Shown one piece after another: positions 21,597 through 23,436 of a stretch of 64,000 bases of DNA (positions within the stretch are counted from its first letter, which is position 1; each line of letters begins with the position of its first letter). The DNA comes from Escherichia coli (GTDB taxonomy: Bacteria > Pseudomonadota > Gammaproteobacteria > Enterobacterales > Enterobacteriaceae). Location: assembly GCF_003790525.1 (NCBI RefSeq), contig NZ_CP033635.1; one strand, 5' to 3'. The notes below the pieces were generated by a model, which made no database searches, was not told the DNA's origin, and worked only from the letters and a program-made list of their open reading frames with translations. Both the position numbers and the translations under genes were made by a program.

Positions 21597-22289
21597 TTAA
21601 GCGATACGAGCAAAGGACGTGGGAGAAAGCGCGTCGCAGAACGTTTCGACGTCGCTGACCCAGCCAAAAAAGGTTTCGATATTGAACAACGCAGCTTTCT
21701 GTGCAAATTCCGGCCCCGCCTGGTGTGTTGCGTCTTCCAACACCACGCCGAAATACTCCAGAAAAAAGCCATCGCGTAGCGTCGATTCGACGCAGACGTT
21801 GGTAGCGATACCGGTGAAAACCAGATGGCGTATTCCACGGCTGCGCAAAATGCTGTCCAGCGGCGTATTGAAGAAACCGCTGTAGCGCGGCTTCGGCAGC
21901 ACAATATCGCCAGGCTGCGGCACCAGTTCATCCACCAGTTGATAATCCCAGGAGCCTTTCGCCAGCAATTTCCCCTGCAGCTGCGGCTGCTTACGCATGG
22001 TTTTCAGGGCGTTCGATTTATGAAAATTCGGTGAGCCGGGGCCGCCAGCCTCGACATACTGTGCATCCCAGCCATTTTGAAACCAGATGATCAGCATCCC
22101 TGCCGCTCGCGCTGCGGTCACGGCGGTTTGAATGTTGGCAATGACCGGGCGAGTGGTTGAGACATCAAACCCGGCGAGATCTAAGTAGCCGCCTGGCGTG
22201 GCATAAGCGTTTTGCATATCCACCACGATCAGCGCAGTTTGCTGCGGATCGAAGGTAATGGCTTCCGGTCGAGCGGTTAAGGTCGTCAT
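21597..22289 (-). CDS. rutB: Ureidoacrylate amidohydrolase RutB (isochorismatase family)
   Basis: ATG at 22287-22289 ([29 protein letters not shown]...), 230 aa; ATGA overlap with rutA stop. Confidence 0.9.
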
Positions 22290-23436
22290 CATGCCACCTC
22301 CTGAGTCAGCGCAGGGAGATGGGCGCGGCACTGCATCAGTGGTTGAATGCGCTCGCCGAAGTTTTCGATTCCCGACAGAAAATCATCGAAGGTCAACAGC
22401 ACGCCTTCGGCACCAGGCACGGTTGCGACTTCATCTAACATGCGCGCGACACTGGCGTAAGAACCGACTAACGTCCCCATATTGATGTTTACCGCCGAAG
22501 TGGGATCGGCCATCTGACGGACGTTGGTGTCTGTACCGGAGCGGGTATCTTTCTGACTTTGTTCGGTTAGCCAGCTTAAGGCCTCTTCATCCGCGCCCGC
22601 TTTGTAGTGTTCCCATTTTGCACGAGCGGCATCGTCGGTTTCGTCGGCAATCACCATAAACAACACATAAGAGCCAACGTCGCGTCCGGTTTGCTCTGCG
22701 GCCTGTTTCATCCGCGCAGCGGTCGGGGCGAAAGCCGTGGGTGTATTTACGCCTTTGCCGAAACAGAAGTTAAATCGGCATACCGGGCGGAGAACGCCAT
22801 GCCAGCGTCGCTTTGCCCGGCGCAGATCACTTTCATGGGGACACTCGGTTGCGGACTGACGCGACAATCATCCATAGTGAAAAAATCGCCTTTAAAATCG
22901 CTTTTCCCCGAGCCCCACAGGTCGCGCAGCACCTGAACATATTCGGTGAGATAGTCGTAACGACGGGAGAAATAGTCATCGCCAGGCCAGATCCCCATCT
23001 GCTCATACTCGGGCTTTTGCCAGCCAGTCACGAGGTTGACGCCAAAACGCCCGCCAGAGATGGAGTCGATGGTTGCGGCCATACGGGCGACGATTGCCGG
23101 AGGTAACGTTAAGGTGGCAGCTGTCGCGTAAATCTGAATGCGTGAGGTCACGGCTGCCAGACCCGCCATCAAGGTGAACGACTCAAGGTTGTGATCCCAG
23201 AACTCAGTTTTGCCGCCAAAGCCACGCAGTTTGATCATCGACAGGGCGAAGTCGAAATGGTAGTGCTCCGCTTTTTGCACAATGGCTTTATTCAGTTCAA
23301 AGGTCGGCATGTACTGCGGCGCGTGGGTCGAAATGAGCCAGCCGTTGTTGCCAATAGGTACGAATACGCCAATTTTCATCATCAACCTCTCTTCGTCTCG
23401 TAAAGTGAAAGTCAGACGGGGCGCTGCATCCTGCAT
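22289..23436 (-). pseudogene. rutA: Pyrimidine monooxygenase RutA, disrupted by an apparent 1-bp deletion (frameshift) in this sequence
   Basis: N-terminal 233 codons (ATG 23436, [12 protein letters not shown]...SARYAD) and C-terminal 161 codons ([12 protein letters not shown]...LTQEVA) lie in different frames; junction at gatTTAact (about 22772-22775); total length is 1148 nt, one short of 383 codons. Confidence 0.6.

Follow-up and report, generated by a model that had tools for sequence, protein, structure and literature searches.

The rutA locus in the 64,000-base stretch of Escherichia coli DNA analyzed here (the window) is read in two different frames, and the question that it raises is whether the gene was broken in the cells or only in the assembly. 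Both possibilities, loss of the first step of the Rut pathway and a homopolymer error in the assembly, had been put forward in a first-pass annotation of this DNA, and they remain the sole viable explanations. The reading favored here, to which we give a probability of roughly 0.6, is that the deletion is a genuine mutation, very recent and confined to this strain, that abolishes rutA function. On either account the event is an ordinary one, a strain-only mutation or a one-base assembly error, and no new kind of biology is involved.

The One-Base Deletion in rutA

The locus was divided into the following features.

22289 to 23436, minus strand: rutA (pyrimidine monooxygenase) locus; 1148 nt, which is 383 codons minus one base; a frameshifted pseudogene as assembled
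22772 to 22774, minus strand: T3 run (T4 in relatives) and site of the 1-bp deletion, gat ttt aac becoming gat tta act
22747 to 23436, minus strand: N-terminal reading from the ORF list, with 221 native codons (M1 to D221), 8 aberrant codons (LTSVSAKA) and the stop codon TAA at 22749 to 22747
22289 to 22771, minus strand: C-terminal 160 codons (N223 to A382) and stop from the ORF list, out of frame with the start

The locus was aligned with intact relatives. Alignment with the intact rutA of strain SMS-3-5 extended over 1149 nt with one gap and no mismatch, and the gap was located in a run of T residues, as the first-pass annotation had proposed; the run is TTT here and TTTT in the relatives. 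On the plus strand this corresponds to AAA at 22772 to 22774, aligned to AAAA in both SMS-3-5 and M172-1. The length of 1148 nt given in that annotation was likewise confirmed against 1149 nt in the references. Its count of 233 codons in the first frame did not hold, as the native codons from the MQDAAPR start number 221 and end with D221. Across the junction the minus strand reads GCG TTC TCC GCC CGG TAT GCC GAT TTA ACT TCT GTT TCG GCA AAG GCG TAA. Codon F222 is destroyed by the deletion, and the native frame is picked up again at N223 (position 22771).

Two overlapping minus-strand ORFs in different frames result, at 22747 to 23469 (frame A) and at 22289 to 22867 (frame B, ending in LTQEVA). 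The RefSeq start of rutA (MKIGVF) lies at 23379, and the split product is 229 residues long if counted from MQDAAPR and 210 if counted from the RefSeq start. The lesion has the form of a frameshift pseudogene, with one indel, no compensating indel nearby, and a premature stop 8 codons past the shift. It is a single determinate difference in which no statistical signal is involved.

Assignment of the Split Protein

For membership in the RutA family, one polypeptide had to exceed the curated cut-off (498.3 bits) across the full length of TIGR03612, an NCBIfam equivalog model of 355 positions. The first fragment matched positions 1 to 205 with 437.9 bits and the second matched positions 203 to 354 with 271.7 bits, so that the two matches abut and each falls under the cut-off. 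When the missing T was restored, the protein scored 725.9 bits over positions 1 to 354. The restored protein has the same sequence as SMS-3-5 RutA (WP_012311618.1, pyrimidine utilization protein A), and a full-length alignment was obtained with 5WAN and 6SGG, the solved structures of the E. coli K-12 enzyme. It was concluded that the locus is a rutA gene by descent and that, as assembled, it encodes no RutA protein. That the return of one T yields an intact RutA was counted in favor of a real mutation.

The Rut Operon and Polarity on rutB to rutG

The surroundings of rutA were found to be those of a complete rut operon.

17938 to 22289, minus strand: rutB, rutC, rutD, rutE, rutF and rutG; intact and base for base the same as in SMS-3-5 and M172-1
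23667 to 24305, plus strand: rutR, the divergently transcribed regulator; intact and the same as in intact relatives
23465 to 23480, minus strand: sigma-54-type promoter element TGGCAT-N5-TTGCA upstream of rutA; a pattern match, unchanged relative to the relatives
23545 to 23560, minus strand: RutR-box-like sequence TTGACCGTTTAGTCCA in the rutR-rutA intergenic region; a pattern match only, the same in relatives
22290 to 22746, minus strand: 457-nt stretch that would be untranslated if the deletion is real, a possible Rho entry zone

The ORFs and the reference annotation agreed on the order of a divergent rutR followed by rutA-B-C-D-E-F-G, and the TGGCAT-N5-TTGCA element upstream of rutA is presumably the NtrC-dependent rut promoter. 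Compared with SMS-3-5 and M172-1, no secondary decay was found anywhere in the rut operon. Since the rest of the operon is identical to that of intact relatives, the deletion must be either very recent or an artefact, and the absence of secondary decay suits a very young mutation and an artefact equally.

The frameshifted reading had been annotated as stopping about 450 nt before rutB, and this was supported by a measured distance of 457 nt to the rutB ATG. In the intact gene the rutA stop overlaps the rutB start (TGATG), and rutB is preceded by a ribosome-binding site of its own, GGAGGTG. With a real deletion, ribosomes would halt 457 nt short of rutB and the TGATG coupling would be lost; the expression of rutB to rutG would then probably be lowered, both by Rho-dependent polarity and by the missing coupling. 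The C/G ratio of the 457-nt stretch is modest, reaching at most 1.47 in 78-nt windows. Rescue of rutB to rutG by an internal promoter was considered and set aside, as no sigma-70-like promoter was found from the shift to rutB. Published rutC and rutD lesions are polar on the downstream rut genes (PMC8113886). Some Rho-dependent polarity on rutB to rutG, which the first-pass annotation had raised as a possibility, is thus likely in cells that carry the deletion.

Relatives of the Window and Quality of the Assembly

The segment from 2289 to 43436 could be aligned in full with SMS-3-5; the differences were 3 substitutions and a single gap, the latter in the rutA run. The whole 64,000 bases aligned with M172-1 (NZ_CP058714.1) with 4 substitutions (positions 7657, 17094, 37340 and 63505) and, again, one gap in the rutA run. 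From these alignments the window was deduced to come from an E. coli close to SMS-3-5, with M172-1 as the nearest complete genome. The best matches of the 1148-nt locus, at 99.9% identity with one gap, were to SMS-3-5 and about 20 other complete genomes.

Of the homopolymer runs in the window, 653 are 4 bases long, 213 are 5, 84 are 6, 25 are 7 and 3 are 8. All 325 runs of at least 5 bases, including the 28 of 7 or 8 bases, agree with M172-1, and the rutA run is the only one that differs overall. A systematic homopolymer problem would be expected to strike the 7- and 8-base runs first, and none of these failed. The agreement of all 325 longer runs indicates an assembly that is not generally error-prone and has no systematic homopolymer errors.

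The substitutions were examined for what they reveal of the isolate. At 37340, a change of G to A in codon 174 of ghrA, a gene 14 kb from rutA, gives G174S and converts the Dcm methylation site CCTGG to CCTAG, the mark left when a 5-methylcytosine in the opposite strand is deaminated. The G174S allele is absent from the best-matching complete genomes, whose scores fit, by arithmetic, two mismatches plus one gap. A 20.9-kb stretch of GCA_034460245.1 and an 11.2-kb stretch of a Logan contig, the latter from 7 read sets that include SRR25608274, carry it at 100% identity, and one contig of GCA_003686615.1 also codes for this GhrA variant. Since the allele is common to independent assemblies, it was deemed a real marker of a subclade. 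The synonymous change of ATT to ATA at 17094 in wrbA lies beside an A5 run; of the 5,409 complete-genome E. coli records that matched a 61-mer at this site, none has the base of the window. At 63505 the allele is a common one, which 1,066 genome records match exactly. The private or rare alleles in ghrA and wrbA indicate that the window comes from a truly distinct isolate. Mutation-accumulation data for E. coli give roughly 1 indel per 5 to 10 substitutions. With this ratio, the 2 rare or private substitutions in 64 kb lead to an expectation of about 0.2 to 0.4 private indels, and a single private indel in the window is unremarkable.

Several other features of the window were recorded. The torS gene (3037 to 5780, minus strand) is annotated as a "frameshifted" pseudogene in SMS-3-5 and M172-1, and the window is identical there. 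Its ORF ends at 3048, which places the shift within the last few codons, and the stretch is one base longer in most other E. coli (202 versus 201 nt); unlike the rutA deletion, this difference is clade-wide. The efeU gene (30459 to 31289) is a full-length ORF of 276 codons in the clade of the window; the efeU of K-12 is known to be a frameshifted pseudogene. Six Rfam matches exceeded the gathering score, all of them expected for this chromosomal region: Ysr251 antisense RNA near phoH (34961 to 35154), a cspA-type thermoregulator (908 to 1330), naRNA4 (12012 to 12090), ES056 (42187 to 42278), ES036 (52372 to 52414) and a PyrC leader (61545 to 61594). Between phoH and ghrA, a gene for a DUF2726-domain protein (35722 to 36408) adjoins a tRNA-Ser gene (36503 to 36587), and the pair may represent a small insertion at the tRNA.

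Rarity of the Deletion Allele

A 61-mer centered on the junction had an exact match in 0 of 5,426 complete E. coli genomes. It was matched with exactly one gap by 2,513 of these, and the remaining genomes have substitutions too near the junction for the search seed. A collection of about 15 billion proteins was then searched for exact copies of the eight possible split-rutA products. One record of the 210-residue N-terminal product was obtained, on a 1.17-kb (1167 bp) contig of the Logan assembly of SRR10211332. This contig carries the same T4-to-T3 change, together with 16 substitutions relative to SMS-3-5 and, within 200 nt, another two single-base deletions, and is probably sequencing noise. 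Because of its different allele background and its noise, it was not accepted as independent support for the deletion. The C-terminal fragments of 140 and 122 residues were also recorded and were rejected as unrelated rutA frameshifts (at positions 639, 643, 650, 716 and 778) or contig-end artefacts.

Some other split-rutA records come from frameshift-rich assemblies, such as GCA_974496745.1. On contig CDDKRI010000009.1 of that assembly, putA, rutR, efeU, agp and cbpA are split besides rutA, giving it an unpolished, error-rich look.

For the 7 Logan samples with the ghrA allele of the window, split products were recorded in none, an argument from missing records in assemblies whose genes were each called afresh. 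These absent records suggest a deletion that has not become fixed in the subclade marked by the ghrA allele. If the reads of the window itself were among those 7 samples, the absence would point to a consensus error.

Real Mutation, Consensus Error or Tolerated Shift

The data above were weighed against an error of consensus or assembly, in which the cells would have TTTT and a functional rutA, and one base would have been dropped in base-calling, polishing or assembly. This was judged a serious possibility, at somewhat less than even odds. It accounts well for an allele that is a singleton among 5,426 complete genomes, which was also counted against a real mutation; for the missing records in the Logan assemblies of the ghrA subclade; for a flanking operon that is perfectly intact; and for the many other split rutA records from frameshift-laden assemblies (GCA_974496745.1). 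The occurrence of the same T4-to-T3 change in the noisy SRR10211332 contig, with its 3 single-base deletions in 1.17 kb, demonstrates further that this run can be miscalled. The error would, however, have to strike only once, in one of 653 four-base runs, while the longer and more error-prone homopolymers were all correct and no other indel was introduced in 64 kb. Short-read assemblies, moreover, seldom miscall a 4-base run. The same observation, that the deletion is the sole indel in 64,000 bases relative to M172-1 and in 41 kb relative to SMS-3-5, was counted for a real mutation, as was the frequency of natural rutA nulls elsewhere.

The third interpretation was that the shift is real and tolerated, either because ribosomal frameshifting or transcriptional slippage restores a full-length RutA or because the fragments form an active split enzyme. 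Both halves are still open reading frames, and an ATG (MKQAAEQ, 22711) lies 36 nt past the premature stop, where translation could start again. The junction G AUU UAA CU is, however, not an X XXY YYZ slippery heptamer, and a run of 3 bases is far too short for transcriptional slippage. The shifted sequence was found in 0 of 5,426 complete genomes, so that, with no relative sharing the shift, it is not a conserved recoding signal. Programmed frameshifting was excluded because there is no slippery site and the shift is not conserved. The ATG at 22711 has no ribosome-binding sequence (the upstream sequence is GCTGCGCGG), and a re-initiated product would lack residues 222 to 242, so that part of the barrel would be missing. 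In view of the junction sequence, the lack of any relative with the shift, and the unsupported ATG, programmed recoding and a functional split enzyme were both deemed effectively refuted, and we give the tolerated shift almost no credence.

A real and strain-private loss of function, our preferred reading, would proceed as follows. One T would have been lost from the T4 run in rutA codons 221 and 222 of an E. coli of the SMS-3-5 clade, in an event of the replication-slippage type. The split product lacks the last 161 of 382 residues (42%) of a single-domain, luciferase-like TIM barrel and would leave no active flavin-dependent pyrimidine monooxygenase; that the activity of the truncated RutA is lost can safely be deduced. 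The Rut pathway begins with the opening of the uracil ring, which RutA and RutF carry out together. A strain unable to open the uracil or thymine ring would gain no pyrimidine nitrogen by this route. If the deletion is real, the isolate is predicted not to use uracil, uridine or thymine nitrogen via Rut, and the proper annotation of rutA is that of a pseudogene. An artefact would call for no more than the correction of one base in the assembly. Neither outcome touches an open question, and the import of either is little beyond annotation.

Comparison with Known Systems

Two overlapping frames for one protein, as at this locus, are also the arrangement of the programmed frameshifts of prfB (+1) and dnaX (−1). 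Those genes have conserved slippery and stimulatory signals and a shift that is common to orthologues, whereas the rutA of the window has neither a slippery motif nor an orthologue sharing its shift. The closest comparison is with the intact rutA of SMS-3-5 and M172-1, in which every base of the 1149-nt locus is the same except for the missing T, and with which the operon, the promoter region and the neighbors are shared. In the window, by contrast, the ORF is divided into two fragments, both of which fall short of the TIGR03612 cut-off.

Other broken forms of rutA were compared at the level of records. A 90%-identity cluster of N-terminal RutA fragments has 401 members, some of them on many contigs, and includes luciferase-like fragments from Shigella sonnei, S. 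boydii, S. flexneri and E. coli UMNF18 that resemble the N-terminal product of the window. The break points in the Shigella and UMNF18 records, at about residues 65, 173, 180 and 186, differ from that of the window, and some of these records are merely cut by contig ends. We considered whether the deletion could be real and also belong, with the W174stop allele described below and the Shigella truncations, to a series of RutA losses that E. coli and Shigella have undergone repeatedly, perhaps under selection. Such losses would be favored in host-associated, multidrug-resistant lineages where, for example, the reactive intermediates of the pathway are costly. The evidence bears on the recurrence of null alleles and not on selection, and we regard the proposal as improbable.

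A W174stop allele of rutA is widespread in other E. coli lineages. The protein collection lists it in 375 blocks, its allelic backgrounds number at least two, and it comes from isolates as well as from gut metagenome assemblies. In genomes with this allele, rutB to rutG and rutR are still called intact (e.g., GCA_038404625.1 and GCA_030002315.1). It resembles the allele of the window in being a point inactivation that leaves the rest of the operon intact and from which gene callers derive two luciferase-like fragments. It differs in being a nonsense substitution at codon 174 that is fixed in lineages, the allele of the window being a frameshift at codon 222 and a singleton. Inactivated rutA is common in nature, and the allele described here is a new singleton among the known null alleles.
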